DNA from: Rickettsiales bacterium | Lineage (GTDB): Bacteria; Pseudomonadota; Alphaproteobacteria; Rs-D84 | NCBI GenBank assembly: GCA_031254335.1 | Contig: JAIRUP010000011.1 | Coordinates: 9,199 to 73,198, forward strand | Direction: 5' to 3' | DNA: 64,000 bases | Shown: in pieces, positions 2,714-63,854 of the stretch | Numbering within the stretch: the stretch's first letter is position 1 | Layout: the number at the start of each line of letters is the position of its first letter | Notes under the pieces: model-generated | What the model was told of the DNA's origin: nothing | What the model saw: the letters and a program-made list of their open reading frames with translations, nothing else | Databases searched by the model: none | Position numbers and translations under genes: made by a program

Positions 2714-3445
2714 ATGAAAAACATGAAAATAATCGGCGGCGCGGTCGCCGTTTTAATCATCGCGGGGGCAGTGTATGCGCTTTGCGGGTCCGACAGCAAT
2801 GTCATATCCGTAAGCGGCGAATGCAACATGAAGGTTCAGCGCGACAAGCTGCGCGTGCGGTTGCAAATCCGCTCGTTGGACAAGAACGCCGCCGTGTCGC
2901 TTCGCAATGTTCAGCTTGCCGCGGACGAAGTCGCAGGCCGCATCAAGAAAATCGACGACCCCACGATGGAGATTCAGACCAAGCGCGTTTCCAGCAACGA
3001 AGAAACAACCTGGAACAACAATACCCGCGTAGTTTTGGGCATTCGGTCCGAAGTCCTTCTTGAAATAACCACCGACCGCAAGGAAACTTTGACCGCCGTC
3101 CTTAACACCGGCGAAGGCGCAAGGAACACCGAGATTCTGCCGCAGGGAATGTCGAACTTTTCGTCCCCCGCGGTCATAGCCGCCGCGACGGAAGAATGCC
3201 TTAAAGCCGCGACAGAAAACGCGCGCGCCAAGGCCGAAGCGATTGCGCGCGCCGACGGGCGCAGGCTTGGACGCCTTGTCGTCGCGCGGCTTGGCGGGAT
3301 GGATTCGGATGACGACGCCCCGGTGCTTTACAGGGCCAAGGCGTTAAGCGCGCCGTCCAGTTTCGCCGAGTCGGCGGGCGATTACATCCAATCCAGCGAC
3401 GGAGATTTGTCCCTTTCCGTCGGCGCGGTTTTTCGCATAAGATAA
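2714..3445 (+). CDS. Periplasmic protein, SIMPL/DUF541-like
   Basis: 243 aa, N-terminal membrane anchor or signal. Overall resemblance to SIMPL-domain proteins is recalled from memory only. Confidence 0.5.
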   Translation: MKNMKIIGGAVAVLIIAGAVYALCGSDSNVISVSGECNMKVQRDKLRVRLQIRSLDKNAAVSLRNVQLAADEVAGRIKKIDDPTMEIQTKRVSSNEETTWNNNTRVVLGIRSEVLLEITTDRKETLTAVLNTGEGARNTEILPQGMSNFSSPAVIAAATEECLKAATENARAKAEAIARADGRRLGRLVVARLGGMDSDDDAPVLYRAKALSAPSSFAESAGDYIQSSDGDLSLSVGAVFRIR

Positions 3446-3601
3446 ATAAGCTGAAATATGCGAAAAACTCGTAAAAACCGCCCTGTTATGCATAATCTGC
3501 TATAATTAGGAGTGATTAGTCGGGTTTAATTATAATTTTCCTTGATTTTTTATTATTAAATGTCATAATTTACCTGTAATTATAGGAAAACGGGGTTTAT
3601 T

Positions 3602-4720
3602 ATGGACAGCGGGAAATTCATAGATACTGGGAAAGGCTATATGGCGTTTTCGCCGACCAAACTGGAAATCGTGGGGCAGGGGTTGCGGTTGGATAGTCTT
3701 CAATCCGTGATAGAGCGCGCAAATATCGCAATAGGCGAGCTGCGGGCTTTGGAAAAAATGCTTCCGAATCCTGAATTGCTGACCGAACGATACGCAATGA
3801 AGGAATCCGTGCTGTCATCCCAGATAGAGGGAACGCAATCCACCCTGGCGGAGTTTATAGAGAACGAAGACGAATCCGATGTAAGCATAGATGTCATGGA
3901 AGTACGGAATTATTTCAATGCGCTGGAATTCGGCGTGAAGAATATAAAAAATCCAAACGGTTTGCCGCTTTCATCAAGGCTGCTTCGAGAATGCCACAGC
4001 ATTCTTATGAAAGGCGTGCGCGGCGGGGAGAGCAATAAAACTCCGGGAGAGTTTCGCGCATCCCAAAACTGGATTGGCGGAAGCAGGCCGTCGGACGCGA
4101 AATTCGTCCCGCCGGTATTCGGCGAGGTATCGGATTTGATGGGAGATTTGGAAAACTATATCCATAATAATTCCCAGCCGAATCTTGTAAAGGCGGCCCT
4201 GATGCATTATCAATTCGAGACAATACATCCGTTCCAAGACGGAAACGGCCGCATAGGACGGCTGCTTATACCATTGTTTCTGATAGACAGAGGCATTCTG
4301 AATTCCCCGACATTATATATCAGCCTTTACCTGAAACAAATGCAGGGGGAGTATTACGACCGACTTATGTCCGTCAGGACCGGCGGCGACTATGACAGAT
4401 GGGTGGAATTCTTTCTGGTAGGGGTCGTCAAGGTCTCAGAGCAGATAATGACGACTACCAAAAACATAATCGCACTTGAAATCAAAGACAGGAATTTGGC
4501 GAAAACAGGGAATGAAATCAAATTATTGGAATTCCTTCTGACGAGGCCAATCATAACGATAAAAGAAGCGCAGGAAAAACTAGGCGTTACAAACGCGACC
4601 GCAGGCTCGTTGGTAAAAAAGCTGGAAGGCAAGGGGATACTGGTTCAGACAAATAAAAAGAAAAGGTATCGCAAATACGCATATAAGGAATACATAAACA
4701 TCATCGACGCCGGGCTGTAA
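3602..4720 (+). CDS. Fic family protein (AMPylase-type), class II with intramolecular inhibitory motif
   Basis: Fic motif HPFQDGNGRIGR; N-terminal SSQIEG fits (S/T)xxxE(G/N); C-terminal wHTH-like tail. The gene and its upstream region are visibly more AT-rich than the flanks. Confidence 0.9.
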   Translation: MDSGKFIDTGKGYMAFSPTKLEIVGQGLRLDSLQSVIERANIAIGELRALEKMLPNPELLTERYAMKESVLSSQIEGTQSTLAEFIENEDESDVSIDVMEVRNYFNALEFGVKNIKNPNGLPLSSRLLRECHSILMKGVRGGESNKTPGEFRASQNWIGGSRPSDAKFVPPVFGEVSDLMGDLENYIHNNSQPNLVKAALMHYQFETIHPFQDGNGRIGRLLIPLFLIDRGILNSPTLYISLYLKQMQGEYYDRLMSVRTGGDYDRWVEFFLVGVVKVSEQIMTTTKNIIALEIKDRNLAKTGNEIKLLEFLLTRPIITIKEAQEKLGVTNATAGSLVKKLEGKGILVQTNKKKRYRKYAYKEYINIIDAGL

Positions 4721-4792
4721 TTATAATTTGACTTTGGCGGCATTTCCCGCATAATTAGCCTATGATTTAACAAAATCAAAGAGGATTACATT

Positions 4793-5692
4793 ATGGCCAT
4801 GACGACCATGGGCGAGTTCGAGACCAGACTTGCCAAAGGAAAAGCCGAACGAAAGGCCTTTCTTAAACTGCGATACAAGGTCTTCGTCGAGGAAGAGGGC
4901 AAGAAACCGTCCGAGGAAGAAAAAAAGGCCCGGGAAGAAACCGACAGCTTCGACAAATACGCCGAATACATGCTGGTTTTCCACAAGAAGAAAGTAATCG
5001 GCGGATATAGAATCATAACCAAAAAGGCCGCCGACGAAAACGACGGATTCTACACCGAAACAGAATTCGACATTGCAAAGGTCAAAAAAATCCGCGGAAA
5101 CATCGCCGAGATGTCCCGCGCCTGCATCGCGAAAAAATACCGCGAAAACCAGCTGGCAATCAGCATGCTGTGGCTGGGCCTTGGCAACTATATATTAAGG
5201 AACAAAATCGTGGCAATGTTCGGCGTCGCATCGTTCGTGGGCCTTAAACCCGTCGCCAGCGCGCAGGCTTTGTCGTATCTTTACTACAACAGCCTTGCGC
5301 CGAAATCCGTCCGGGCCAAGGCTTTGCCGGGGAAATTCGACCGCATGGACATCCTTCCAAAGGAATATGTCGACGAGGAAAAGGCGTTCGCGGAAATGCC
5401 GCCTTTGGTCAAAGGCTATCTTCGCCTTGGCGCGGAATTCGGGCAGGGCGTGTTCATGGACGAGCCTTTCAACTGCTATGACATTTTCGTGACCCTGCAA
5501 ACCCGCAAAATCAGCAAGGTTTATCAAAAAAGATTCCTTGGCAACGAAGCCGCGCTGGACCATCTGATTATCGAAGACGGACTGATTAAGACCGGCGCGA
5601 AGACCACCGCGAAAATTCTGAAAATGCCGTTCGCCGGGATTGCGCTGGCGGCGAACTTCATCCTGAACAACAAGGCGGAAGATGAGAAATAA
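4793..5692 (+). CDS. olsB: Ornithine-lipid N-acyltransferase OlsB-like (hemolysin-like GNAT)
   Basis: 299 aa. The N-terminal FETRLAKG..LRYKVFVEE and the acyltransferase core resemble OlsB. Translationally overlapped by a PlsC-type gene. Confidence 0.7.
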   Translation: MAMTTMGEFETRLAKGKAERKAFLKLRYKVFVEEEGKKPSEEEKKAREETDSFDKYAEYMLVFHKKKVIGGYRIITKKAADENDGFYTETEFDIAKVKKIRGNIAEMSRACIAKKYRENQLAISMLWLGLGNYILRNKIVAMFGVASFVGLKPVASAQALSYLYYNSLAPKSVRAKALPGKFDRMDILPKEYVDEEKAFAEMPPLVKGYLRLGAEFGQGVFMDEPFNCYDIFVTLQTRKISKVYQKRFLGNEAALDHLIIEDGLIKTGAKTTAKILKMPFAGIALAANFILNNKAEDEK

Positions 5693-6524
5693 TATGATGG
5701 GGATAAAGAAATTTTTCGGTGGAATGCGGTTCTTCGTCTGGTTCGCTTGGAGCATACTGAACGCCCCGCTGTTCATAATATCGTCCATGCTGCCGCCCAA
5801 TTCGCGCGTCGGAATCCTGCGATTCTATATGAAGAACTCATACCGCGTGTTCGGGTTCCGCGCGCGCCGCATCGGCGATGTCGCAAAGGACAGGCCCCTT
5901 ATGATTGTCTGCAACCATATCGGATGGCTGGAACTTTTCGCTTTGCCAAGCGTCGCGAAGGTATCCTTCTTCGGCAAGGCCGAAATTAAAAGCTGGCCGG
6001 TTTTGGGCTGGATTGTCGGCGCGCTCGGCGTCGTCTATGTGGACCGCAGGCCCCAGCATGTGAAGGAATCCCTGGCCGCCGTCAATTGCGCCATGAAATG
6101 CGCGGCGCACCCAATCGCGCTTTTCCCCGAAGGCACCACCAGCAACGGCGCGTATATCAAAAAATTCAAGTCGTCCCTGTTCAATTTTTTGGAACCGCAG
6201 CTTGCGGGCCAGGGCGGAAATGTCGCAATCCAGCCCGTAGTTCAGATTTACAGATACCCGGACGGACGCCTGATTCCCGACAAGGATTTGGCCGACAATT
6301 ACGCCTATTTCAACAACGACTCGGTCGAATACGGCCCCCAGGCAGAGGTTCAGCGAAACGGCGTCGCAATCGCAATCAATATCATGGCGCGCGGCGGGAT
6401 TTTGGTGGAGTATCACTTCCTTCCCGTCGTCGATTTGTCGGGCGTTCACGACCGCAAGGCCTTGGCGGAAAAGTTGCAAAAGATTATAGCGGATAAGTAT
6501 AAGGAATTAAGGGCAGGGGCATAG
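5682..6524 (+). CDS. olsA: Lyso-ornithine lipid O-acyltransferase OlsA-like (PlsC family)
   Basis: 280 aa. NHIGWLE and FPEGTTSNG acyltransferase motifs. Overlaps the olsB end by 11 nt (alternative ATGs at about 5694/5697). Confidence 0.7.
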   Translation: MRNNMMGIKKFFGGMRFFVWFAWSILNAPLFIISSMLPPNSRVGILRFYMKNSYRVFGFRARRIGDVAKDRPLMIVCNHIGWLELFALPSVAKVSFFGKAEIKSWPVLGWIVGALGVVYVDRRPQHVKESLAAVNCAMKCAAHPIALFPEGTTSNGAYIKKFKSSLFNFLEPQLAGQGGNVAIQPVVQIYRYPDGRLIPDKDLADNYAYFNNDSVEYGPQAEVQRNGVAIAINIMARGGILVEYHFLPVVDLSGVHDRKALAEKLQKIIADKYKELRAGA

Positions 6525-6525
6525 T

Positions 6526-6578
6526 CCCCCCCACCGAAACCGCTTTGCGGTTTCGACTCCCCCACAAGGGGGGAGTTA
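6526..6578. repeat. Double-hairpin palindromic element, intergenic copy
   Basis: cccccccaccGAAACCGctttgCGGTTTCgaCTCCCCCacaaGGGGGGAGtta, starting 2 nt after the olsA stop. Near-identical copy at 21099..21155. Confidence 0.85.
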
Positions 6579-6587
6579 ACAAGTCAA

Positions 6588-6839
6588 TTATTCATAGAGT
6601 TTGCAATAGACGGTTTCGTCTTCCTTCACCATGCTGGCGAAGGAATTGCCGCCGTCGGACATGACCTTGTCGTCGATTGCCCTGCAATCTTCCTTGGCCG
6701 TCGCCTCGTTGTTCATGCGGCATTTGCCGTCTTCGACCGTGCCGAACTGCTCGCAGGCTTCATTGAAATTCGGGTTGGCATACGCGACGCCGAACGACAT
6801 GGCGGCAACGACGGGAACGATTAAAAGTTTTTTGTTCAT
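6588..6839 (-). CDS. Small secreted Cys-containing protein (hypothetical)
   Basis: 83 aa, signal peptide MNKKLLIVPVVAAMSFGVAYA, 4 Cys, AAGGAG Shine-Dalgarno. N-terminal similarity to ORF 61358..61690. Confidence 0.6.
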   Translation of the reverse strand: MNKKLLIVPVVAAMSFGVAYANPNFNEACEQFGTVEDGKCRMNNEATAKEDCRAIDDKVMSDGGNSFASMVKEDETVYCKLYE

Positions 6840-9687: not shown

Positions 9688-10059
9688 ATGATTATAGGCT
9701 TGGGAAACGACATCGCCGTATGCAGCCGTTTTTTGGAATGGACCGACTTCAAGAAGGGCCGGATTTTCACAAAGAAAGAGATGGAGCACGCCGCGCAGGA
9801 CAACTGCAACGAAGAGAAACATCTGGCGAAATTCTGGGCCGCGCGCGAGGCTTTCGTAAAGGCCCTTGGCACCGGGTTCGACGACGGCATCGCCTTCACG
9901 GATGTGTCGGTGCTTCATGACGAGCGCGGCGCGCCCGAGCTGCTGATTGCGGGAGAGGCGAAAAAGATTCTGGCCGCGAAATCGAAGGACGCGAAAGTTT
10001 ATCTGTCCCTTTCCGACGACGGCGACTATGCGCTGGCCACGGTTATTATAGAAGGGTGA
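9688..10059 (+). CDS. acpS: Holo-[acyl-carrier-protein] synthase
   Basis: 123 aa. The MIIGLGNDI N-terminus, WAAREAFVKALGTG and SLSDDGDYA motifs match AcpS. Confidence 0.85.
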   Translation: MIIGLGNDIAVCSRFLEWTDFKKGRIFTKKEMEHAAQDNCNEEKHLAKFWAAREAFVKALGTGFDDGIAFTDVSVLHDERGAPELLIAGEAKKILAAKSKDAKVYLSLSDDGDYALATVIIEG

Positions 10060-10061
10060 TA

Positions 10062-10090
10062 AAAAATAAAGGCCAATATTTTTTGAGTTC
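10062..10090. terminator. A/T hairpin AAAAAATA-loop-TATTTTTT between convergent genes
   Basis: Its arms match the outermost arms of the 150-nt hairpin elements (aaaaaatat...atatttttt gag) but have no interior. Confidence 0.4.
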
Positions 10091-10093
10091 TCA

Positions 10094-10813
10094 TTATCTT
10101 GCGAGCGTCCGCCTGAAGTTCAATATTTCCAACGCCTCGTCGTTCGAGATTTTCCTTTCGTATTCAAGGTGCGGCGACCAGTAGTCGCGGAAGACGCGGG
10201 TTATATAATGCTCGCCAACCTTGTCGAATTCGCCGTATCCGTTGCGCGCGTATTCCGACGCGAAGCCCGCGATTATTTCGCGCTTCGATTCATAAGTGCA
10301 TTCGTTCTCCGCGCCGTCGTGATACTTGAAGTCGACGATATACGGCTTGTTCGCAAGAGTCCCGAACCGGACGCTGTGCAATCCGCGGTTCACAACTATG
10401 TTCCGCCATTCGTATGTCCGCCGCATCCACAGCGGGTCGATGTTCAGAATGTCCAAAGTTTCCTTGTCCATGGAAACCGCTTCCGCGCCGATATATTTCA
10501 TAAGGCCGACTTCGCCGGGCTTGGCGTCGCGCTCGACCAGATTCACCTTTGCGCCGGCGCGCAAATGCAAATCCAACATGAACGGGTATCTGTCCATAAA
10601 CGGATGCGCGGTTTCCGGCAATTCGCCCAAGCCGTTGTCGCAAACGACGGCCAGCGGTTCTTTCATGTAGCCCTTGCATTCCGGGATGAAAGGATAGACA
10701 GGCCCGTCGGTTTTTATATATGAACGAACCAAATCCATCATCGGATTTTTCCTGCCGCCGAACCCAAGTCCAAACCAGCCGCCGTGTTTGCGCCCATCAA
10801 TGAATATCGGCAT
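10094..10813 (-). CDS. Hypothetical protein (no recognisable family)
   Basis: 239-aa ORF with normal composition. The opposite-strand ORFs are Arg-rich shadows. Sits 3 nt downstream of ORF 10817..11053. Confidence 0.6.
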   Translation of the reverse strand: MPIFIDGRKHGGWFGLGFGGRKNPMMDLVRSYIKTDGPVYPFIPECKGYMKEPLAVVCDNGLGELPETAHPFMDRYPFMLDLHLRAGAKVNLVERDAKPGEVGLMKYIGAEAVSMDKETLDILNIDPLWMRRTYEWRNIVVNRGLHSVRFGTLANKPYIVDFKYHDGAENECTYESKREIIAGFASEYARNGYGEFDKVGEHYITRVFRDYWSPHLEYERKISNDEALEILNFRRTLAR

Positions 10814-10816
10814 TCT

Positions 10817-11053
10817 TCACCGTCCCCGGCGCGCGGCAAATTCTTCCGTGAAATGCTGCGTCCACCATTTGTGGGAAGACTCCGCGAGCTCTTTGGTGCA
10901 GTGTCCGAATTTTTTTATGGTTCCAAATTCCATGCGCTTGAAATTATAAGGCAGTTTCACGCCGAACAGCTCGCCGTCCGGGTCGTGTTCGATGGGACCA
11001 AGCCGCGCGGCCAGATATTCCTGCAATGTGGGTTTCTTGAATATATTGAACAT
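10817..11053 (-). CDS. Small hypothetical protein, first gene of a two-gene unit
   Basis: 78-aa ORF, tightly coupled to 10094..10813. Confidence 0.5.
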   Translation of the reverse strand: MFNIFKKPTLQEYLAARLGPIEHDPDGELFGVKLPYNFKRMEFGTIKKFGHCTKELAESSHKWWTQHFTEEFAARRGR

Positions 11054-11111
11054 GTCTGTATCCTTTGGTTTCTTAACTGGAATATAACATAGGTTTTTGT
11101 TTTGTCAAGCA

Positions 11112-11135
11112 TATTATTCTTAATTCGGAATAATA
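11112..11135. promoter_or_regulatory. Inverted repeat TATTATTC-N8-GAATAATA in a divergent promoter region (candidate operator)
   Basis: Read directly, between the divergent genes 10817..11053 (-) and 11177..12445 (+, HTH N-terminus). Confidence 0.35.
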
Positions 11136-11176
11136 CAGCCTATAAATTGAGAAAATACTTGATTTTTCAGTGAAAA

Positions 11177-12445
11177 ATGCTTAGTATTGTTCTTAAAAAG
11201 GAAGAAGCGGTGCAGTTTATGGATGTTTTGACGGCGGCCAAAAAGTGGAGCCTTACCGAGCGGCGCGTTATCGCCTTGCTTCGCGCGGGGCGCGTCAAGG
11301 GCGCGGTCAAGAACGGACACAGCTGGCAGATTCCGTCCGACGCGGTCAAGCCATACGACAAGCGCGCCAAATATTCCAGATATGAAAAGCCCGCGCGCCG
11401 CAGCGTCGTCGCCGGAATCGACACCGACATCGGCCGCGACTTGGCCGCCATTCTTACCGACAATAATTTCGAGGTCATCGGATTCAAGCGCGCCGAATGC
11501 GCGGACGCGAAATCCGCAGCCGCCAAATGCGCCGCGATAAACGGCTTTATCGACGGCTTCGCATTCGTGAATTTGGACTCCGGCGCGGACATCGCCCAAT
11601 CCCTTGTGCGCGACATACTGCCCGCGCACGCGATGGCAGAGGGGCTTATCGATAAAATGAATTACCAATCCGGCATGGTTCTTATCAATTCCGCCGCGTC
11701 CCCCGCGCGCGCCGCGCACGAAGACATCGTAAAATCATGGGCGCCGAAACTTGCCCAGATTGCCGGCACGCGAATCAATTCCCTTACCATAACCGGCGGC
11801 GCGGCGGGCGCGGGCGACACATTGTATATGTCGCGCGAAATCGCGGACGAAGCCTTTCTGCTGATGACGCGGCATTCGCGCACCACGGGTTCCTCCGTCT
11901 TTTCCGACGGCGGCGCGATTGCAATCGACAAGTCCGGCCAAAGCGAGGACCTGGACAACGGCCAGCTTTACGCATGGATTCACAAGTCCTTTTCCGACAT
12001 CAAACCGGGCGGCCATGTTTGGGCAATATCGACCATGATGGACAACGAATGGACCGACGACGCGATGGAACGCCAATTCAAGCGGGACAATCTGGACGCC
12101 GTCCAACGCGGCGTCAAACTTACCCGCATTTTCATATTCAGCCGAAAAAACGCCCGCCGCTTCAAGGACAATCCGAACATCGTCGTGTATATTACGAACG
12201 CGAAGGCCGAGACTTTGTTCGTCGATATGGACGAGCTGCGCAAAAAGCATTATTCGCTGCTGCGCGAAATCGGCGACGGATGGATTGCCTTCGGCGACGA
12301 CAGGCTGTTCATGGACATAATCGGCTGGGAATACGGCAGGCCGCGCGCCTACCTTACCATCGACAAGAAGACCATCGCGGCCAAGAAAAAAATCTTCGCA
12401 GAGCTTAAAAAACTTTCCGTCCCGCTGAAAACGGTTGTGAAATAA
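11177..12445 (+). CDS. HTH (excisionase/MerR-like) - Rossmann-like - unknown C-terminal domain fusion protein
   Basis: 422 aa. N-terminus LTAAKKWSLTERRVIALLRAGRVKGAVKNGHSWQIP looks like a HTH_17-type DNA-binding domain. VVAGIDTDIGRDLA is an SDR-like glycine motif. The C-terminal 150 aa is unassigned. An alternative start is ATG 11219. Confidence 0.6.
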   Translation: MLSIVLKKEEAVQFMDVLTAAKKWSLTERRVIALLRAGRVKGAVKNGHSWQIPSDAVKPYDKRAKYSRYEKPARRSVVAGIDTDIGRDLAAILTDNNFEVIGFKRAECADAKSAAAKCAAINGFIDGFAFVNLDSGADIAQSLVRDILPAHAMAEGLIDKMNYQSGMVLINSAASPARAAHEDIVKSWAPKLAQIAGTRINSLTITGGAAGAGDTLYMSREIADEAFLLMTRHSRTTGSSVFSDGGAIAIDKSGQSEDLDNGQLYAWIHKSFSDIKPGGHVWAISTMMDNEWTDDAMERQFKRDNLDAVQRGVKLTRIFIFSRKNARRFKDNPNIVVYITNAKAETLFVDMDELRKKHYSLLREIGDGWIAFGDDRLFMDIIGWEYGRPRAYLTIDKKTIAAKKKIFAELKKLSVPLKTVVK

Positions 12446-20030: not shown

Positions 20031-20158
20031 TCCCCTGCCAAAGGTCGGGGAGCCGCCAGTTATACAACAGGGGCAACCCAAAGACCGGCGGGGTCATTTT
20101 AGTGATGATTTTTTGAACTCTCCCGACCGCCAACTTCCCGTTGGCGGTTTTTTCTAAA
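20031..20158 (+). promoter_or_regulatory. Structured leader with pseudoknot potential and a terminator, upstream of Cys-rich gene C
   Basis: Interleaved pairs CCCCUG(20032)/CAGGGG(20068) and CCGCC(20053)/GGCGG(20087). GGUCGGG(20043)/CCCGACC(20122) overlaps the terminator ACCGCCAAC-loop-GUUGGCGGU+U6 (20126..20153). Confidence 0.35.
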
Positions 20159-20629: not shown

Positions 20630-21883
20630 TTATTTGCTTAAATAATTCACGGGGTTCAGAGCGCGGGTGCCTTGGCGAAGCTCGAAGTGAAGCTGCGGGC
20701 TGGATACCTTGCCCGTCGCGCCCGCGCTTCCGATTTTCGCGCCGCGCGCGACCGTTTTGCCGCGCTCGACCAGTATCGTGTCAAGGTGTGCATAGACCGT
20801 CATGAAATTGTCCGCGTGCTTTATGATGACCAAGTTCCCAAGGCCCTTGATTTCGTTCCCGGCGTATGCGACGACGCCGTTCTCCGCCGCCGACACGGGG
20901 TCGCCGCGCACGGCCTTGATATTGATTCCGTCGTTGTAAAGCCCGTTCGATTTCGCGCCGAATTCCGACAGGATTATGCCATGCAAGGGCCAGGCGAATT
21001 TCTTCGCAGAGCGCGGCGGGACTTTTGGAAGGCTTGAAACACTGGCCGGCTTTTTCACGGCGATTGGCTGGGCTGTTGGAGTTGGTTCGGTTTTTTGACC
21101 CCCCACCGAAACCGGCGTTTCAGCCGGTTTCGACTCCCCCGCAAGGGGGGAGTTAGCAGGGGGTGTATCCGCAATGGGGGAGTTATTTGTTAATTGAATC
21201 TGGGCGGGAAGGACAAGTTTTTGGCCGACGCTTAATGCGAACGGCTCCTTCAAATCGTTCATTTGCGCGAGGCTGTTCAAGTCCATTTGGTAAAGCCGCG
21301 AAATCGAATAAAGCGTTTCGCCCTTCGCAACCGTATGCACGAACTGGCTTGGCAAAAACAGCCGGCGGCCCGGGTTCAGCGCATAGGGCGGTTCCAGCTT
21401 GTTCGCCGTGATAAGGTCGCGCAGCGGGACATTGTGCTTACGCGACAGGCTGTAAAGGGTGTCCCCGGCCGCGACGGTTATAATGCTTTGCTGTTGCGGC
21501 ACTGTTTGGACCGGCGCGGGAGCTTCGGCGCGCTTCGGCACAATCAGCACATCGTCTTCGCCGCCGTCTTCCTTCGCCACGGGAACGGGCGGGGCGGGCG
21601 GGTCATAGTCCGACAATTTCCCGGTCGTGTAATAGTCCGATTTCGCGGAAGTGTTCACAGGTTTTTGGACTTGCGCCAGTTGTTGATAGTCCGAGATTTT
21701 TCCGGTTTCGTATTTAGGTTTTTCGGAATAGGGATTCGCCCAGAAACTTCCGGCCCCGCCTTCGTCCGCCTTCACTTCGTTACGGCGCGACTCCGGCGCG
21801 GCGGGTTTGCCGGTAATCGATTCCCGTATGTCGCACGCGGTTGTCAAAAACAGTGCCGCCAAAGCGACCATGACCTTTTTCAT
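20630..21883 (-). CDS. nlpD: LysM-LysM-M23 murein hydrolase activator/peptidase lipoprotein (NlpD-like)
   Basis: 417 aa. Lipobox LFLTTAC; two LysM repeats (ITVAAGDTLYSLSRKHNV.., HTVAKGETLYSISRLYQM..); C-terminal M23 domain (GINIKA.., LHFELRQG). Confidence 0.85.
   Translation of the reverse strand: MKKVMVALAALFLTTACDIRESITGKPAAPESRRNEVKADEGGAGSFWANPYSEKPKYETGKISDYQQLAQVQKPVNTSAKSDYYTTGKLSDYDPPAPPVPVAKEDGGEDDVLIVPKRAEAPAPVQTVPQQQSIITVAAGDTLYSLSRKHNVPLRDLITANKLEPPYALNPGRRLFLPSQFVHTVAKGETLYSISRLYQMDLNSLAQMNDLKEPFALSVGQKLVLPAQIQLTNNSPIADTPPANSPLAGESKPAETPVSVGGQKTEPTPTAQPIAVKKPASVSSLPKVPPRSAKKFAWPLHGIILSEFGAKSNGLYNDGINIKAVRGDPVSAAENGVVAYAGNEIKGLGNLVIIKHADNFMTVYAHLDTILVERGKTVARGAKIGSAGATGKVSSPQLHFELRQGTRALNPVNYLSK
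21099..21155. repeat. Double-hairpin palindromic element inserted in frame in the nlpD-like gene
   Basis: ccccccaccGAAACCGGcgtttcaGCCGGTTTCgaCTCCCCCgcaaGGGGGGAGtta. It encodes ANSPLAGESKPAETPVSVGG in the linker between the LysM and M23 domains. Confidence 0.85.
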
Positions 21884-24146: not shown

Positions 24147-24152
24147 GGAGGG

Positions 24153-24311
24153 ACAAAAAATCCAAACTCGGTTTTTCGTTTTCGGATTAAATCCCCGAAT
24201 GACACATCGAAAAACCACCCGTCGCGGCGGCGTTACAGGCCAGACGCCGGGTGGTTTTTCTTGGTCCTCGACGATTTCCTCTCGAAAACGCGACCTCGCT
24301 AGGATTTTTTG
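24153..24311 (+). repeat. Extended hairpin element E1 (~150 nt) plus T-tract, between the virB9-like and virB10-like genes
   Basis: Outer arms AAAAAATCC/GGATTTTTT, conserved blocks TTTTCGTTTTCGG and CTCGAAAACGCGA, central 13-bp stem GAAAAACCACCCG/CGGGTGGTTTTTC, then TTTTTTGAG. Confidence 0.65.
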
Positions 24312-24335
24312 AGTTATTTATAAGGCAAGGCAGAA

Positions 24336-26666: not shown

Positions 26667-26820
26667 AAAAATGAAAGTGCAATGTTTCAAAATCGGTCTA
26701 TATCGCCCATTATCTTCGCAAAACCGACGCCTCGCGGACGCATCAGTCCAGACTCGGGTCGGTTTTGCTGGATTCCGGGCAATCTATCCTCGATTTTGCG
26801 ATTGCACTAACATTTTTTTG
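26667..26820 (+). repeat. Extended hairpin element E2 plus T-tract, directly after the virB10-like stop
   Basis: Arms AAAAAAATG/CATTTTTTT, GTGCAAT/ATTGCAC and CAAAATCGG/CCTCGATTTTG, central GCAAAACCGAC/GTCGGTTTTGC. Compensatory changes relative to E3. Confidence 0.7.
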
Positions 26821-26851
26821 AACTTATAATATATAAGAAGGAGTGCTTGAA

Positions 26852-29755: not shown

Positions 29756-32700
29756 AATCTGTAAGATATTCCGGCGCGGGCGTTGAAGCCGTTTATCTCG
29801 TCGCTTGACCGCAAGGAAAACTTCGCGTCCAAAGTCAAAGATTCGCGGACGCTTCCGACCATTCCGAAACCATATTCGAAATACGAGCCGACCATTCCCA
29901 ATTTCGGCTGCTCCATTTCGCCGATTCTGTTTTTGGAGTCGCCGGACAGGTTCCAATTATAAAGCCCGGAAAGAAAAACATTCACCGATTCCATCCCGAA
30001 TATCAGCGCAAGGCCCGGCGCGACATTCGCGCCGTCCACATAGCTTGAATACATTTCTATATCGCCGTAATTCGACATCCATTCGCGCCCGCCGAAGTGG
30101 TTGTAAGACGCCATAAAATTCGGCTGGACAATCGTGTATCTCATCACGCGCATGTCATAGGCGATTTTTCCCGCCGCGCCGACGAACCAGTTGTCGACGG
30201 AATCCTTCGCGCCCCCGACATCAATCTCGGTGTTATAGAATCCGTTATACGCCATAAGCGCGCCGATGAATTTCCCGTTCGTCCAGGTGCTTTGGATTCC
30301 GATTTGCCCGCCGTTCTGCGTCATTTCGACGCCGCTCCATCTCTGTTTGCCGCCGTTATAGGCCATGTAGAGCGTCGGCACCCATCGCCAGCTTTTTTCC
30401 CCGCCAATCAGGACGGACGCGGTGTCCAGGCCCGCGATTATTCCGTATAAATTGCTGTCCGCCTCGTCCAAGCCGCCGCCAAGTTTCAGTTTTTCCGCGC
30501 CGCCATAGGCCTTGACCCAGACGCCCTTCTGGTGTTCCTGGAACTGCCACGGCGCATACTTGCACATCAGGCATTCGTCGCTGTCAAGGAACACATGGTC
30601 GAACATGACGCCCGCGACAAGACCCTGCGACAGCATCATCGCGTTCGTCGATACCCCGCCGCGCAAGGCCTGCGGATTTCCGCCTTGCAGCCGAAGCTCG
30701 TAATTTCCGCTTCCAAGCGACACAAGCGAATATTCCCCCGCCGGAGTCATTATGGAATCCGCCGACGCCGCGAACATAATCGCGGGGTCGTAGTTCGGCG
30801 AGCTCATTATATTGAACGGCACGACCGCCGAGCGCGGAGAATTCAGCAAATTGATTTCATCCAGCATGACAACCGCGTCCATCGCGTAAATGTCGGCTAT
30901 GCCCGACGCCGGGTCGCCGTTCACTATCAATTCGCCCGGCGCCGCCGTTCCGCTGAAAACAAACTGGTCGGAGCGCGCGTTCCGCGCGTCCAAATCCACC
31001 GAGAATTTCGCAATGCTGTTCACCGGATTGTCCAAGACCGAAAAGATTGCGAACTTGCCCGCGAAATTGTGCGTTTGGATTGCTCCGTCCATCGAATTCA
31101 CAAGCGCGTTGTCGCCCATGACAAGCGCGCCGCTGGTTGCGATGTATGTTCCGCCGCCCGCGCCGACATTAAGGGCGACATTGTTTATGAACAGCGTGGA
31201 ATCCGACAGGACCAAGTCGCCGCCCGTAAGTCCGCCGCTTGGCGCAAGGCCTTTGACATAGGCGACCGCGTTGTTGCCGATTACCGTGACTCCGCCCGTT
31301 TTTTGCAGCACATCCGAATAGACGGCAAGCCCCGCGCCCCGGGCGACAATATAACCGTCGCTTTGATTGACTTTGCCGAATGTTCCGCCCGACGACGCGG
31401 GCATGGAATCGGTCGGATTCAGCCAAATCGCGCCGCCCGCGATGTCCAGGAATCCCGTCGAATACAGATTAATCGTCGCCGATTCCCCGATTATGTCGCC
31501 CGGATTCAACTTCAAGCCGCCGTATATGTTGACGGTGCCGCCGGTTATGTTCATGACCGCGCTGTCCAGCTTGTCGGCGTTCAGATGCCAGTTCAGGATT
31601 CCGCTTTGGATGTTGTTCGTTCCGCCGAAGAACATTCCGTAAGCATCGACGATTCCATTGGTCTGCAAGAATTCGCCGAGATAGTTCGAGTTGTCCGCCG
31701 ATTCCGCCAATATGAAATCCGCCGGACTATGCTTGGCGATTAGCGCGCCGGCCGTTCCCGCAATGCCGCTGCCGAAGAACAGAATCCCGCCGGTGGAAAT
31801 CAAGGTTATCGTTCCCGCGTTGTATATGTCGTTCGCGCCGGTGCTGTCGGCATTCCCGCTGAAAATCATGTTCGCGCCCTGCGCGACGCTTATGTCCAGC
31901 TGGCTTCCCGCCGCGTTGTAAATCGCGCCGCCAAGGCCGCCCGCCGTATTGCCCGTGAAGTTCATGTCGTGGTCGCCCGAATATATCGCCGTGGTTTCGG
32001 ACGAACTTGACGAGTCGTGGTAAATCGCGCCGCCGTTCCCGCCCGCGCTGTTTCCGACGAAGGAACCGCCGTGCTTGTTTATAGTCCCCGTATTGTAAAT
32101 CGCGCCGCCGTCGCCGCCCGCGGAATTATTCGTGTAATCCAGATTGGTGCTTGTCGTGCTTCCCGCCGCGATGTTCGCCGCGCCGCCGTTCCCGGTCGAG
32201 CTGTTGTTTTGCAGCGCAAGGTTCGAAAGCGTCGCGCTTGAACTTGCGTTGTCCATATAGATGACCGCGCCGCCGCGGCCGGAAGAATCCAAGGCGTCCC
32301 GAACGGTCAAATCCTGCAATGTGAAATATGTATCGTCGTTCTCGATGTCGAACAGGGACTGCCCGGTTTCGCCGTCCGTCGAATTCAATCCCGACAGAAC
32401 GGCCGTTCTTGTTCCGGCAACCGCGCCATGGACCGAGAATGTCCCGTCGGCCATAACTCCCAAATCCCCGTCGTTCTGATAAATTTCCGCCGCGCCGATT
32501 TGCCACGAGCGCGCGACCGCGTCCGACATCCCGGCCGCCGCCGCATTCGAATCAAGCTCGTTCACATCGTTCAGCACAAGGACAAGGGACGACGGATTGT
32601 TCGGAACGCTAATCATTCCCGTCGATGTCCCGCCCGGATTCGTAGTCGTCGAGGCCGTGCCGCCGTTAGGGTCGGTCGTGCTTGAACCGCCGCCGTTCGG

Positions 32701-35496
32701 GTCCGTGGTCGTAGTGGTCGAGCCGCCGCCGTTCGGGTCGGTCGTGTTTATCGTCGTGTCGCCGCCGGGATTCGTGTTTATCGTTGTGCCGCCGCCGCTT
32801 GGCGGGACTATGGTCGTGGTCGTTCCGCCGTTCCCATCCGGGCCCACATCGACCGTCGTGCCGTCGGGCAGGGACGCGCTTCCGCTGCCGCCCGCCGGGA
32901 CATCGACGACCGTTCCGCCCGGCTCGCTTGTTATGGTGCTGTTTCCGTCCGGGTCGGTCACAACCGTTATCGTGTTGCCCGCGCCGTCGTCCGTCGTGCT
33001 TGCGGAGCTTCCGTCGGGATTCGTCGTCGTAGTCGTCGTGCTTCCGTCCGGGTTCGTCGTGGTCGTAGTCGCGCCGCCGCTCGGGTCGGTCGTCGTAGTC
33101 GTGGTTCCGCCGCCCGGATTGTTCGTGGTCGTCGTCGTGCCGCCGCCGGAATCCACGGCGGACGAAGAGCTTCCCGAACCGCCCCCGCCGCTGGGCACGC
33201 TGTCAAGCTGGACATACTGGTTGTTCACGGTCGTAATCGTGTATGTTCCGTTGGAAGTCGCGACGAACTGCGACAAGCCGTTTTGGAAATCCAGGACATC
33301 GCCGTATATTATGCGCATGGTTCCGGTAATAAGGCCGTCCGCGTCATTCACATAAATTTTCCCCAGATAATTTATCGTGCCTCCGCCGTTCGCGACATTC
33401 AGCGAGTCCGCCGAAAGCCCGCCCTGGTTATTTCCGATTTTGAACGAAAGCGACGCGGTCGCGTCGGCCCCAAGATTCAAGAAATTATACTGCTGGTAAT
33501 TCGCCGACGAATTCGCAAGGTCTATAAGCGAGCCGTTGTAAAAACCGTAAGCCGTGCCGCCGGTATAATCGGCGCTTCCCAATATGACGCCGCTATTATT
33601 GAAGCCGATAGAGTTCGACTGCCCGTTCGATATGTCGTTTTGCAGATTGTAAAGCGCGCCGCCCGGCATGCCCGCATTGAATCCGACCGTCGCGCCGCTT
33701 CCCATGAAATTTATGCCCGCGTCCGCGATGGCCGCGGCCCGGCTTATGGAAATCCTGTTGCTGGACACGGCCGTGAAGTTCATGGCCGAATCCGACAGCA
33801 TATCGGCGTTGAAATAGAATGTATCCTGGCTGCTGCTTACATTCGCCGTGCCGCCGATATTGTTTTGCCCGCCGAACATAAGGCCCTGAACATTGACGAC
33901 GGCCCCGGCCGCATTGTTGAAGACTCCCGCGAAGCCCGTGCTTTGACTGGCCGCGTTCAGGTTCAGGGTGGTGCCGGATTCCTGATTTATGGTTCCTATG
34001 CCCGCGATTCCGTCGTTTATGTTCACGGTGCCGCCGCCGGTTATGTTTATGGCGGCGGTCGCCGAATCCTGGTATATTCCGGGGCCGTTCGCAAAACCCG
34101 CCGCATAATTGTTCAGGAAATTTATTCCGCTTGCGCCGGTATTCAGATTAATCACTCCGTTCCCGGAATTGTAAATCGCACCGCCGAACAACGCGCCGTT
34201 CGCGTCGAACAATGTCCCGTCCGCTATGTTCACGACGCTTGTCCCCGGATAATTGTTCCCGGAAGTATTGTAAATCGCGCCGCCGCCACCGCTTGCATAG
34301 TTGTTCGTGAAGCTGCCTGAAATATTTACGACTATATCGGCCTGGCCCGCCTGGATATTGTTGTAAATCGCGCCGCCGAATCCGGCCGACTTGTTGCTGT
34401 CGAACGGCCCCGATATATCGAATGTTATATTTCCGCCGTAAGGCGAATACTGGTCGCCGACCGCATTGTAAATCGCGCCGCCCTGCGCCGCTACATTGGA
34501 ATAGAACGAGCCGACCAAATTCACATTAACGGCGGTGTTTCCGCCGTTTATTTCGGTCGCAACCGCGCCGCCGAACGCGGCCTGGTTCTGTGTGAAGACG
34601 CCGCCCGCAATATCGAAATTGTTCGCGGCGGGGGCGTTTCCATTCAGGACTCCGTTATAAACCGCGCCGCCCATGCCGGCCGCATAATTCTGGTAATAGG
34701 TATAGCCCTGTGCGCTGAAATCGTTCGACACGCCCGCGCCGCCCGCGTTATTGCCCATGAAATAAATCGCGCCGCCGTTCTGGGACGCCCTGTTCATCGC
34801 CAGATAATGCCCGTTCGTCCCGGTGTCGTCCACAACCGCAAATGTTCCGCCGCCGTTCTGCGAATTGTTCGACGCCATATAGACCGCGCCGCCGCTTGCC
34901 GCGGCATTGTTTGCGAAGTCGTTGTCGGTCAGAACATACGAATTGTCGCCGCCGCTTTGCATTTGGGAATTCACGGACACCGCCGCGCCGTTCGCAGACG
35001 ACGAGTTGTTATAGAAATAAGTTCCCGCGACCGTAAAATTATGATTGCCAATACCGTTTCCCGCAAATGCAACCGCGCCGTTCGCCGCGCCATAGACCGT
35101 AAGATTCGAGATGCTCGCGCTTATGTCGTTATTCCAGCCGGGCGCGAAGGCAAGGGTATATCCCCCCATAATCAGCGCGGTTCCGTCCGGCGTTCCTCCA
35201 TAACTGTTTATGCTTAGGGCGGGGCCGGAAAACGGATTCAGCGCGTTCGCCAGAATTATTCCGTAATCGCCTTTGGAATCGATGGCGGTTCCGACGACCG
35301 TTATCGAGCCATCGCCGCCGTTCCACGCGTCCGCAAAGTCCGCGGAAGTCGCGGCATCCGCCGCGTCCGCCGCGCGGACCAAGCAAAAACATACCATGCC
35401 CGACAATAATACGGCCGAGAATCTCATGATTAATAATATAAAAAAACGGCGCGGAATTTTATAGGTAGCTATTCTCAGATTAATTTCCCTTTCCAT
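29752..35496 (-). CDS. Autotransporter adhesin with polymorphic-membrane-protein (PMP) repeats
   Basis: 1914 aa. Dozens of GGA(I/V)Y(N) and FxxN motifs. Central Thr/Gly/Asn/Pro-rich block (TTTTTNPDG-like repeats). C-terminal beta-barrel ending ISYRF. The signal peptide probably starts at Met-24 (35427). Confidence 0.85.
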   Translation of the reverse strand: MEREINLRIATYKIPRRFFILLIMRFSAVLLSGMVCFCLVRAADAADAATSADFADAWNGGDGSITVVGTAIDSKGDYGIILANALNPFSGPALSINSYGGTPDGTALIMGGYTLAFAPGWNNDISASISNLTVYGAANGAVAFAGNGIGNHNFTVAGTYFYNNSSSANGAAVSVNSQMQSGGDNSYVLTDNDFANNAAASGGAVYMASNNSQNGGGTFAVVDDTGTNGHYLAMNRASQNGGAIYFMGNNAGGAGVSNDFSAQGYTYYQNYAAGMGGAVYNGVLNGNAPAANNFDIAGGVFTQNQAAFGGAVATEINGGNTAVNVNLVGSFYSNVAAQGGAIYNAVGDQYSPYGGNITFDISGPFDSNKSAGFGGAIYNNIQAGQADIVVNISGSFTNNYASGGGGAIYNTSGNNYPGTSVVNIADGTLFDANGALFGGAIYNSGNGVINLNTGASGINFLNNYAAGFANGPGIYQDSATAAINITGGGTVNINDGIAGIGTINQESGTTLNLNAASQSTGFAGVFNNAAGAVVNVQGLMFGGQNNIGGTANVSSSQDTFYFNADMLSDSAMNFTAVSSNRISISRAAAIADAGINFMGSGATVGFNAGMPGGALYNLQNDISNGQSNSIGFNNSGVILGSADYTGGTAYGFYNGSLIDLANSSANYQQYNFLNLGADATASLSFKIGNNQGGLSADSLNVANGGGTINYLGKIYVNDADGLITGTMRIIYGDVLDFQNGLSQFVATSNGTYTITTVNNQYVQLDSVPSGGGGSGSSSSAVDSGGGTTTTTNNPGGGTTTTTTDPSGGATTTTTNPDGSTTTTTTNPDGSSASTTDDGAGNTITVVTDPDGNSTITSEPGGTVVDVPAGGSGSASLPDGTTVDVGPDGNGGTTTTIVPPSGGGTTINTNPGGDTTINTTDPNGGGSTTTTTDPNGGGSSTTDPNGGTASTTTNPGGTSTGMISVPNNPSSLVLVLNDVNELDSNAAAAGMSDAVARSWQIGAAEIYQNDGDLGVMADGTFSVHGAVAGTRTAVLSGLNSTDGETGQSLFDIENDDTYFTLQDLTVRDALDSSGRGGAVIYMDNASSSATLSNLALQNNSSTGNGGAANIAAGSTTSTNLDYTNNSAGGDGGAIYNTGTINKHGGSFVGNSAGGNGGAIYHDSSSSSETTAIYSGDHDMNFTGNTAGGLGGAIYNAAGSQLDISVAQGANMIFSGNADSTGANDIYNAGTITLISTGGILFFGSGIAGTAGALIAKHSPADFILAESADNSNYLGEFLQTNGIVDAYGMFFGGTNNIQSGILNWHLNADKLDSAVMNITGGTVNIYGGLKLNPGDIIGESATINLYSTGFLDIAGGAIWLNPTDSMPASSGGTFGKVNQSDGYIVARGAGLAVYSDVLQKTGGVTVIGNNAVAYVKGLAPSGGLTGGDLVLSDSTLFINNVALNVGAGGGTYIATSGALVMGDNALVNSMDGAIQTHNFAGKFAIFSVLDNPVNSIAKFSVDLDARNARSDQFVFSGTAAPGELIVNGDPASGIADIYAMDAVVMLDEINLLNSPRSAVVPFNIMSSPNYDPAIMFAASADSIMTPAGEYSLVSLGSGNYELRLQGGNPQALRGGVSTNAMMLSQGLVAGVMFDHVFLDSDECLMCKYAPWQFQEHQKGVWVKAYGGAEKLKLGGGLDEADSNLYGIIAGLDTASVLIGGEKSWRWVPTLYMAYNGGKQRWSGVEMTQNGGQIGIQSTWTNGKFIGALMAYNGFYNTEIDVGGAKDSVDNWFVGAAGKIAYDMRVMRYTIVQPNFMASYNHFGGREWMSNYGDIEMYSSYVDGANVAPGLALIFGMESVNVFLSGLYNWNLSGDSKNRIGEMEQPKLGMVGSYFEYGFGMVGSVRESLTLDAKFSLRSSDEINGFNARAGISYRF

Positions 35497-42691: not shown

Positions 42692-42700
42692 ATTAAAAAA

Positions 42701-42720
42701 CTCCCCCGCAAGGGGGAGTT
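42701..42720. terminator. Bidirectional hairpin CTCCCCCgcaaGGGGGAG between convergent genes
   Basis: Flanked by A6 and T-containing runs. Identical in design to hairpin 2 of the double-hairpin element. Confidence 0.65.
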
Positions 42721-44377: not shown

Positions 44378-44391
44378 GTCTTCTTCCTTTT

Positions 44392-63695: not shown

Positions 63696-63698
63696 GGA

Positions 63699-63851
63699 CA
63701 AAAAATATAAGCGCAATTTTTCGTTTTCGGTCTAAATCGCCCACTACCGGCGGGAAACCGGCTTCGCAGGAGCGGCAAGCCTAGCGCGCGCCGGTTTCCC
63801 TTGGTATTGAACGATTTATCCTCGAAAACGCGATTGCGCTAATATTTTTTG
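63699..63851 (+). repeat. Extended hairpin element E3 plus T-tract, directly after the PBP1A stop
   Basis: Arms AAAAAATAT/ATATTTTTT, GCGCAAT/ATTGCGC and CGTTTTCGG/CCTCGAAAACG, central GGGAAACCGG/CCGGTTTCCC, then TTTTTTGAG. Confidence 0.7.
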
Positions 63852-63854
63852 AGT

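Follow-up and report, generated by a model that had tools for sequence, protein, structure and literature searches.

How does a GC-rich palindrome come to lie within the reading frame of a lipoprotein gene that remains intact? The locus that raises this question lies on a 64-kb stretch of contig JAIRUP010000011.1 from a Rickettsiales bacterium, which was analyzed over its whole length and is referred to here as the window. An intact gene encoding a 417-aa NlpD-like lipoprotein with two LysM stretches and a Peptidase_M23 domain (positions 20630 to 21883, minus strand) contains a 57-nt double hairpin of 66% G+C at positions 21099 to 21155 (minus strand). A first-pass annotation had described this element and had likened its in-frame position to the behavior of Rickettsia palindromic elements (RPEs); direct reading of the sequence confirmed the double hairpin within the gene. 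Our answer, to whose core claims taken together we give a probability of about 75%, is that the element is a dispersed repeat of the BoxC/TM type inserted in frame.

On the plus strand, the copy in the NlpD gene consists of the block CCCCCCACC (21099 to 21107), hairpin 1 (21108 to 21131; GAAACCGGC, loop gtttca, GCCGGTTTC), the dinucleotide GA, hairpin 2 (21134 to 21152; CTCCCCC GCAAG GGGGGAG), and TTA ending at 21155. Read in the gene sense (minus strand), the order is hairpin 2 (CTCCCCC..GGGGGAG), TC, hairpin 1 (GAAACCGGC..GCCGGTTTC), and a G-tail, the G-rich block GGTGGGGGG to which CCCCCCACC is the complement. A 25-nt core, with up to 3 mismatches allowed, occurred twice in the window against 0.00 expected in shuffled sequences. 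Folding z-scores relative to shuffles for the two full copies were −5.4 and −6.4 on the plus strand and −4.3 and −2.7 on the minus strand, and the sense strand of the NlpD copy folded at −38.4 kcal/mol (z = −4.3).

The second full copy lies at positions 6526 to 6578 (minus strand) between convergent genes: it begins 2 nt past the stop codon of an acyltransferase gene (5682 to 6524, plus strand) and ends 10 nt short of the stop codon of a convergent 83-aa open reading frame (ORF; 6588 to 6839, minus strand), with no terminator-like T run. The near identity of the two copies that had been noticed at first pass held up. They share three identical blocks of 16, 16, and 14 nt (CCCCCCACCGAAACCG, CGGTTTCGACTCCCCC, and CAAGGGGGGAGTTA) and differ solely at the tip and loop of hairpin 1 and at 1 base in the loop of hairpin 2; the hairpin 1 difference includes a G-C to C-G swap that keeps the base pair. 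The flanks of the two copies are unrelated.

Within the protein, the repeat is translated as ANSPLAGESKPAETPVSVGG, corresponding to residues 243 to 262, which fall between the last LysM stretch (residues 183 to 226) and the M23 domain (residues 317 to 411), so that its earlier placement in the linker is borne out. The identical 1,254-nt gene with its element was present in an independent assembly of another sequencing run and is therefore not an artifact of one assembler. Immediately beyond the element, after 13 nt, the 17-nt sequence CCGCAATGGGGGAGTTA (21169 to 21185) matches the 3′ part of hairpin 2 at 16 of 17 positions and is probably, judging from this resemblance, a decayed neighboring hairpin-2 module. 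A decayed partner module downstream of the NlpD copy (21020 to 21095) was also considered and was dropped, its likeness being too weak to claim.

Copies within and between genes

The closest NlpD hits were named as Rickettsiales or Alphaproteobacteria metagenome-assembled genomes (MAGs); they were 56 to 62% identical to the window protein and had a VirB8/9/10 neighborhood in common. Their linkers varied in length and sequence, and none of the 4 orthologs carried the sequence of the window element. An ancestral linker peptide conserved in all orthologs, the case that had been named as speaking against an insertion, was thus not what we found: the linker DNA was unrelated in 3 of the 4 (P0002, P0003, and P0005), and the fourth (P0004) had a different GC double hairpin with a G-tail in its linker.

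This fourth ortholog, at positions 10001 to 11263 of locus L001 (261 to 18907 in Rickettsiales MAG GCA_031283185.1), lies among repeats of a family of its own, AGT-CCCCTTCGC-TGG-CGAAGGGG-TG followed by a variable hairpin and then GGGGTAGTGG, with 9 hairpins or copies in 21 kb; the arms also read CCCCTTCG..CGAAGGGG, then a variable hairpin, then GGGGTAGTGG. One copy of that family is in frame near the N terminus of the NlpD ortholog (10118 to 10170, ..IPLQGGGVPRSGGVV..), at a site that differs from that of the window insertion, and a further copy lies just past the stop codon (11267). The double hairpin in the linker itself, at about 10735 to 10800, has the same orientation and tail frame as the window copy. 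Taken with the window copy, these repeats indicate that the disordered parts of NlpD have taken up such elements more than once.

We then scanned one genome per species with the pattern GGTTTCGACTCCCCCNNNNNGGGGG, which covers only the junction of hairpins 1 and 2, and found 9 copies in 8 loci of alphaproteobacterial or Rickettsiales MAGs and one Opitutales MAG, so that further copies, whose absence would have spoken against a mobile repeat, do exist. The left arm CCCCCCACCGAAACC, which lies outside the scan pattern, was the same in all 7 alphaproteobacterial copies in which it is present and was one base off in the Opitutales copy (T for A); the loops varied among copies. Together with both window copies this gave 11 members of the subfamily, 6 of which were in frame in identified genes of uncultured bacteria (NlpD, GlyS, CarB, RfbD, PDH-E2, and malate synthase G), 4 intergenic, and 1 at a contig end. 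The intergenic copies lay at the 3′ ends of convergent genes or between codirectional genes. Both orientations and more than one reading frame were represented, and copies often formed inverted pairs of two subtypes 15 to 45 nt apart.

Alignment to solved structures revealed clean insertions in two of the host proteins: in RfbD, 11 residues of PDB 1KBZ were replaced by 47, and in GlyS, 41 residues were inserted between positions 293 and 295 of PDB 7YSE. The RPE-like, in-frame behavior proposed from the window alone is therefore real, and in-frame insertions are present in several conserved genes. A stop-to-stop census of GC-rich metagenome contigs placed 80% of elements in ORFs of at least 150 aa, compared with 91% of random positions; this census was uninformative as coding evidence, and Pfam evidence on individual ORFs was used instead. 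A protein search with the six joined reading frames of the element returned one irrelevant hit, its short Pro/Gly-rich matches remaining below significance. Around solo and paired copies we found no consistent direct repeat of the kind left by target-site duplication, only AT-rich flanks (..TTA / element / TTA..) in some.

Three of the host genes showed further peculiarities. Two distant GlyS genes (L010:3970-4096 and L119:8025-8082) carry repeat inserts in one surface loop, after ..QKYF.., which corresponds to E. coli positions 293 to 295; this shared loop is either an insertion hot spot or the site of an old shared insertion. In the Opitutales MAG (L009:2736-5263), malate synthase G is split into overlapping ORFs (4481 to 5263 and 2736 to 4556, minus strand) exactly at a cluster of repeat-derived sequence; the gene could be a pseudogene, could contain a frameshift, or could owe the split to a homopolymer error of long-read assembly. 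Between the ATP-grasp and oligomerization domains of the CarB with a repeat at the contig end (L011:316-2190) lies a second unusual stretch, ..KKPSPIGRGLGEGKGVEIPSDLSVGKEALTPRPLPRGEGA.., which may be another repeat insert.

We propose that the 57-nt segment is a solo copy of a dispersed, noncoding, GC-rich repeat that landed in, or was copied into, the disordered NlpD linker. It would survive there because it is 19 codons long and has no stop codon in frame and because the linker tolerates almost any sequence. For the NlpD protein, the insert is most likely a neutral passenger.

Block order and kinship with BoxC-type repeats

We evaluated the blocks with a triad rule in which the C-stem is Watson-Crick paired to the G-stem and the third strand runs antiparallel to the G-stem with G·G, T·A, or A·A contacts. 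In both window copies, the blocks CTCCCCC / GGGGGAG / GTGGGGG gave Watson-Crick pairs at 7/7 positions and purine-motif triads at 7/7. The triad rule was perfect in all 11 tabulated instances (7/7 to 9/9, with about 9 different block sequences), and Watson-Crick pairing was perfect in 10 of them, with 1 mismatch in the E. coli copy; in these instances the G-rich tail mirrored the G-arm of hairpin 2, each A being either retained or replaced by T. The gene-sense strand presents a C-stem, a loop, a G-stem, and then a G-rich mirror of the G-stem with A changed to T, the block order required of a purine-motif intrastrand triplex (G·G-C, T·A-T), with loop 2 replaced by a hairpin. Hairpin 2 would provide the C-stem/G-stem duplex of this putative triplex motif, the G-tail its third strand, and hairpin 1 a structured insert filling loop 2; such a triplex may form in vivo. 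Two other structural readings were rejected: the long form has too few G-tracts for a G-quadruplex, and a switch based on Watson-Crick pairing of the G-tail with the C-stem was dropped because the placement of A and T makes that pairing poor while the triad rule is perfect.

The same block order defines the TMECO repeats, which follow the pattern 5′-CCCTCNCCC N3-6 GGGNGAGGG N3 GGGNGAGGG, number 3,610 copies in 262 proteobacterial genomes, and form a stable triplex in vitro as oligonucleotides; triplex motifs rich in G/C likewise abound in cyanobacteria and Neisseria (Holder 2015, PMC4666352). The window blocks do not match this consensus and therefore represent a related subfamily, not TMECO itself. 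Loop 1 of the element, at 4 to 5 nt, is within the limits of published triplex searches (1 to 6 nt for ITxF and 0 to 10 nt for Hoyne), and loop 2 (TC plus hairpin 1; 21 to 26 nt between the G-stem and the G-tail, or a hairpin of 26 to 31 nt) is outside them, the corresponding TMECO loop being 3 nt. Because those searches restricted loops to at most 6 or 10 nt, the long form was invisible to them.

A looser metagenome pattern (CCCCCCACC N5-35 CTCCCCC N4 GGGGGG) returned, among the matches listed, mostly a short form without hairpin 1 and a minority with a hairpin 1 of other sequence. Distinct long-form inserts folded better than shuffles in 24 of 33 cases and comprised at least 12 different stem sequences, which indicates that the sequence of hairpin 1 varies between subfamilies and its fold is retained. 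Short forms lay between or inside the Pfam domains of an MmeI-type restriction-modification enzyme, DnaE, an FAD-linked oxidase, RsmG, and the second GlyS, where the loop is the same as in L010. No Rfam family matched the element at gathering thresholds. Full-length alignments to the whalefall-1 model (RF01762) scored 22.7 bits for the NlpD copy, 22.5 bits for the intergenic copy, and 25 to 30.3 bits for relatives, all below its gathering score of 37 bits.

By its sequence, the element is a hairpin-in-loop subfamily of the BoxC/PIT/TM repeats (PIT, potential intrastrand triplex; Hoyne & Maher 2000, 2002), related to whalefall-1. One structural rule thus unites E. coli BoxC/TMECO, an orphan Rfam motif, and the long form described here. 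In E. coli, TMECO was reported to be “always located intergenically” (Holder 2015, PMC4666352); in the uncultured bacteria surveyed here, repeats of this class are translated inside essential genes, namely those for GlyS, DnaE, CarB, RfbD, E2, and NlpD. The first-pass annotation was unaware of in-frame insertion for this sequence family, and our literature search likewise found no report of in-frame copies for BoxC-type repeats.

Several points weigh against this reading. The whole-window Rfam scan, run at permissive thresholds, found only two full copies in the 64 kb. For the NlpD copy we saw no presence/absence polymorphism, target-site duplication, or insertion junction, and the insertion boundaries are unmappable because the orthologs are only 56 to 62% identical and the linker is hypervariable. 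With regard to the triplex, Holder et al. (PMC4666352) saw none in vivo, and RNA reportedly does not form purine-motif triplexes.

Elsewhere in the window, a solo hairpin-2-like module, AACTCCCCCGCAAGGGGGAGTT, lies between convergent genes at positions 42699 to 42720 (minus strand). The sequence TTTTTT follows on the minus strand, and the module therefore reads as an intrinsic terminator for purH; it is possibly a truncated family member. The purH ORF itself (42740 to 44947, minus strand) encodes 735 aa, with the MGS domain starting only at residue 209. Its N terminus is some 200 residues longer than expected for PurH, perhaps because the start codon is wrongly assigned or because the protein is extended. 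A subthreshold Rfam match to sRNA-Xcc1 (20043 to 20136, plus strand; 38.1 bits against a gathering score of 53, E = 0.0043) falls in the spacer downstream of the NlpD gene. Two families of intergenic repeats (D7 and D12; about 46 and 79 nt, 61 to 80% identity) lie after the VirB9-like gene and near the window end (24151 to 24314, 26744 to 26822, and 63696 to 63854) and are unrelated to the element in the NlpD gene. A long run of degenerate 33-nt and 50- to 90-nt direct repeats (families D1 to D6 and D8) at positions 31500 to 35000 looks like a large repetitive surface-protein gene.

DUF559 nuclease genes beside the repeats

Among 120 loci selected by DNA pattern, 9 contained a DUF559 gene (PF04480) adjoining an element. 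DUF559, encoded by genes of about 110 codons, has a Vsr-like PD-(D/E)XK fold, its closest solved structure being 3HRL, and its clan includes a homing endonuclease. In most of the 9 loci, the gene is bracketed in a typical order: hairpin 2, hairpin 1, G-tail, and ATG on one side and, past the stop codon, C-tail, hairpin 1, and hairpin 2 on the other. The G-tail lies 0 to 7 nt ahead of the ATG in most, and the C-tail begins at or overlaps the stop codon. Since the 120 loci had been chosen by DNA pattern, we added homologs from a protein search; all 7 loci fetched by protein identity, 3 of them chosen because their proteins were without a repeat-encoded tail, had modules next to the gene. A C/G hairpin lay no more than 105 nt from the DUF559 gene core in 15 of 15 nonredundant loci, and on both sides in 10 of them, with C/G hairpin densities of 0.16 to 2.5 per kb at these loci (0.16 to 0.7 in the 13 longer than 1.5 kb). 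Furthermore, a regex classification assigned repeat-encoded C-terminal tails to 35 of 110 DUF559 homologs (for example, ..PPTRTARAVRPPPQGGR, TPHP..SPSRGE, PSLKGRV, and DPPSRGG). Tails and inserts of this kind (…SPLxGE…, …PPQGG…, …SPSRGE…) inflate or distort metagenome gene calls and protein alignments. These results indicate a physical association of DUF559 genes with the repeat modules.

The association extends to several lineages. At locus L139, the module GGGGAGG-TC-GAAACGGC..GCCGTTTC-GGGTGGGGGG nearly equals the window subfamily. Azospirillum brasilense and Sinorhizobium sp. K101 have modules beside a DUF559 gene, and on a Deinococcus psychrotolerans plasmid identical 47-nt inverted copies surround a DUF559 gene between paaD and paaZ. 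At a further locus (L031:6075-6625), a DUF559 cassette lies between carA and carB, flanked by a duplication of about 42 bp with 4 mismatches. This duplication is the junction of the carA end and the carB start; its left copy retains the stop codon of carA, and an intact carB begins in its right copy. In L041, the cassette at the same carA-carB position has a stop codon within DUF559.

In E. coli, the DUF559 gene ycjD ends at a TGA that lies within the hairpin loop of a module, and some 200 nt farther downstream the spacer preceding fabI holds a classical BoxC element. It was at this site, in the envM (fabI) paper, that BoxC was originally described (Bergler 1992). The ycjD region was present in 3,378 of 5,426 complete E. 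coli genomes, and the median genome had 14 places matching a 63-nt BoxC-like query. Among 60 genomes taken as a spread sample, the mean number of other BoxC-like places was 8.9 with ycjD and 4.4 without it (P = 1.6 × 10−5, uncorrected for phylogeny and confounded by phylogroup). A further 877 E. coli genomes had neither a BoxC-like match nor ycjD. We take strain 55989 to belong to phylogroup B1 and IHE3034 to B2. As described previously, ycjD is found in phylogroups A, B1, and C and is replaced elsewhere by eefRABCD. The published motif counts are 29 in 55989 and one in IHE3034 (Holder 2015, PMC4666352).

The modules thus occur singly, as inverted pairs, and flanking a DUF559 gene. Set beside a MITE, which has terminal inverted repeats and a target-site duplication and is related to an autonomous element, the paired forms carry inverted modules and the DUF559 cassettes carry the same modules; no short target-site duplication was seen, and one cassette (L031) has the flanking duplication of about 42 bp. 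By analogy with RAYT genes and with REPs (repetitive extragenic palindromes) and REPINs, the parent unit would be a DUF559 gene plus its flanking modules, and the small elements would be gene-less derivatives. The nuclease would recognize the module in its folded or extruded state and bring about the copying or maintenance of that module; such a partnership would resemble that of RAYT and REPIN, with a PD-(D/E)XK enzyme as its basis. That DUF559 mobilizes or maintains the BoxC-type elements, the long forms and whalefall-1 included, as gene-less cassette derivatives is a tentative proposal, and we think it somewhat likelier to be wrong than right. Alternatively, the repeats could be the target of a parasitic nuclease, or the modules could serve the nuclease as regulatory ends of its own.

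A driver role for the nuclease has to contend with five points. No DUF559 gene was found in the window (tblastn, 1e-3). The flanking modules have no fixed orientation with respect to DUF559, being reversed in L139 and at the Deinococcus locus (L157). Some cassettes share their locus between related genomes (L150/L152 and L031/L041) and so give an impression of stability, not of mobility. Many E. coli genomes that lack ycjD still contain BoxC-like matches. Moreover, we know of no lone PD-(D/E)XK nuclease that acts as a transposase.

DUF559 is nevertheless a candidate partner enzyme, with a bracketing that holds even at ycjD, for repeats near which mobility genes were “never found” in E. coli (Holder 2015, PMC4666352). 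We found no paper linking DUF559 or ycjD to BoxC-type repeats, and in that report the words “ycjD” and “endonuclease” occur 0 times. The idea can be tested in E. coli. If it is true, the DUF559 cassette would answer a question open since 1992, namely where this repeat class originates, and would explain repeats written into proteins across several phyla.

Alternative readings and comparison with known systems

The alternative that survives best, unlikely as we consider it, is that the double hairpin is a selected cis-acting structure in nlpD, operating as mRNA or as nontemplate single-stranded DNA, with a role that could be translational pausing, mRNA stabilization or processing, or an RNA function of the whalefall-1 type. 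The strong fold of the sense strand (−38.4 kcal/mol), the retention of the hairpin 1 fold through complete stem replacement across subfamilies, and the matching orientation and tail frame of the other double hairpin and G-tail in the L001 linker all fit such a role. So do the rating of whalefall-1 as a likely RNA by Weinberg et al. (PMC2864571) and the position of the G-tail 0 to 7 nt before the ATG in most canonical DUF559 loci, which is like that of a ribosome-binding site. What speaks against it is that the same element occurs in unrelated genes, in both orientations, and between genes, and that 3 of the 4 NlpD orthologs are without such a structure in the linker. In addition, PIT elements are reported to have no promoter or terminator activity in E. 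coli, and nothing ties the element to NlpD function.

Less room still is left for a REP or REPIN of the RAYT system, mobilized by a Y1 transposase and lying in a gene by chance. The solo and inverted-pair forms are similar, the placement of the intergenic copies, at the 3′ ends of convergent or codirectional genes, is that of REPs, and REPs are known inside genes (Di Nocera 2013, PMC3733652). However, neither stem has a GTAG or CGTC tag beside it, the flanking bases being ACC/GAAACCG, CGGTTTC/GA, GA/CTCCCCC, and GGGGGAG/TTA. No Y1_Tnp was found among the annotated genes of the loci fetched, the metagenome loci not having been scanned for it, and the gene consistently flanked by elements is DUF559.

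Descent from the RPE families themselves is very improbable. The element is palindromic and in frame and comes from a Rickettsiales-like alphaproteobacterial MAG with VirB8/9/10 neighbors, and to this extent the description of its in-frame position as the hallmark of RPEs stands. By sequence and size it nonetheless appears not to be an RPE, at 57 nt and 66% G+C against about 100 to 150 bp. RPEs belong to AT-rich genomes. The family to which the element belongs also has members in Opitutales, Deinococcus, E. coli, and soil metagenomes, and the blocks of the element obey the BoxC/TM rule. Finally, an ancestral linker peptide or a chance similarity, suggested by the Pro/Thr/Ala-rich, length-variable linkers of NlpD-like proteins and by a linker that is here no longer than those of the orthologs, counts as already refuted by DNA blocks that recur unchanged in the intergenic copy and in copies located in other genes and reading frames, by a chance expectation of 0.00, and by the unrelated DNA of orthologs at this position.

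We therefore return to the in-frame BoxC/TM-type repeat and to how it compares with known systems. RPEs share with it the palindromic form and an occurrence that is both intergenic and, in unrelated conserved genes, in frame at surface or linker sites that tolerate insertion; roughly one-half of RPE copies are coding (Ogata et al. 2000, 2002), compared with 6 of 11 here. It is set apart from them by size (57 nt solo and 120 to 140 nt in pairs, against about 150 bp), sequence and base composition, the wider taxonomic range, and the triplex-type blocks. The REP/REPIN system likewise has short hairpin singlets, inverted doublets, and a single-copy gene flanked by repeats (Bertels & Rainey 2011). 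REPs, too, are occasionally in frame, for example in the genes for DnaE2 and tRNA synthetases, and Opitutus, Thauera, Xanthomonas, and Sphingopyxis have in-frame GTAG/CGTC REPs (Di Nocera 2013, PMC3733652). The REP/REPIN system differs in its GTAG/CGTC tag and in its flanked gene, which encodes a Y1 transposase and not a PD-(D/E)XK DUF559 nuclease. As in-frame palindromes are already documented for RPEs and REPs, the behavior is of a known kind.

The whalefall-1 model matches both window copies and the modules upstream of DUF559 genes. Over model positions 1 to 56, the likeness comprises a 7-bp C/G hairpin with a tetraloop, a 2- to 3-nt spacer, a second hairpin beginning GA...UC, and the 3′ tail GGGUGAGG; the difference lies in the subthreshold scores (22.5 to 30.3 against 37 bits). 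This motif has been known only from whale-fall metagenomes, as a free noncoding RNA, and its description makes no link to BoxC, coding regions, or DUF559 (Weinberg 2010, PMC2864571).

With BoxC/PIT/TMECO, the element shares the order of C-stem, G-stem, and G-rich third strand obeying the G·G-C, T·A-T, and A·A-T triads. Both are GC-rich, appear to be dispersed and multicopy, and occur singly or as inverted pairs of two types in many phyla, with no transposase found nearby; in E. coli, type A TMECO pairs with type B (Holder 2015, PMC4666352), which is the same pairing as here. The differences are that loop 2 is here a hairpin instead of 3 nt, that the blocks are CTCCCCC / GGGGGAG / GTGGGGG rather than CCCTCNCCC / GGGNGAGGG / GGGNGAGGG, and that the window copy and many of its relatives are translated in frame, whereas TMECO is reported as intergenic in E. 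coli. With coding copies of BoxC-type repeats in many uncultured lineages, RPE-style remodeling of proteins by selfish palindromes is therefore broader than Rickettsia and the RAYT-type REPs.

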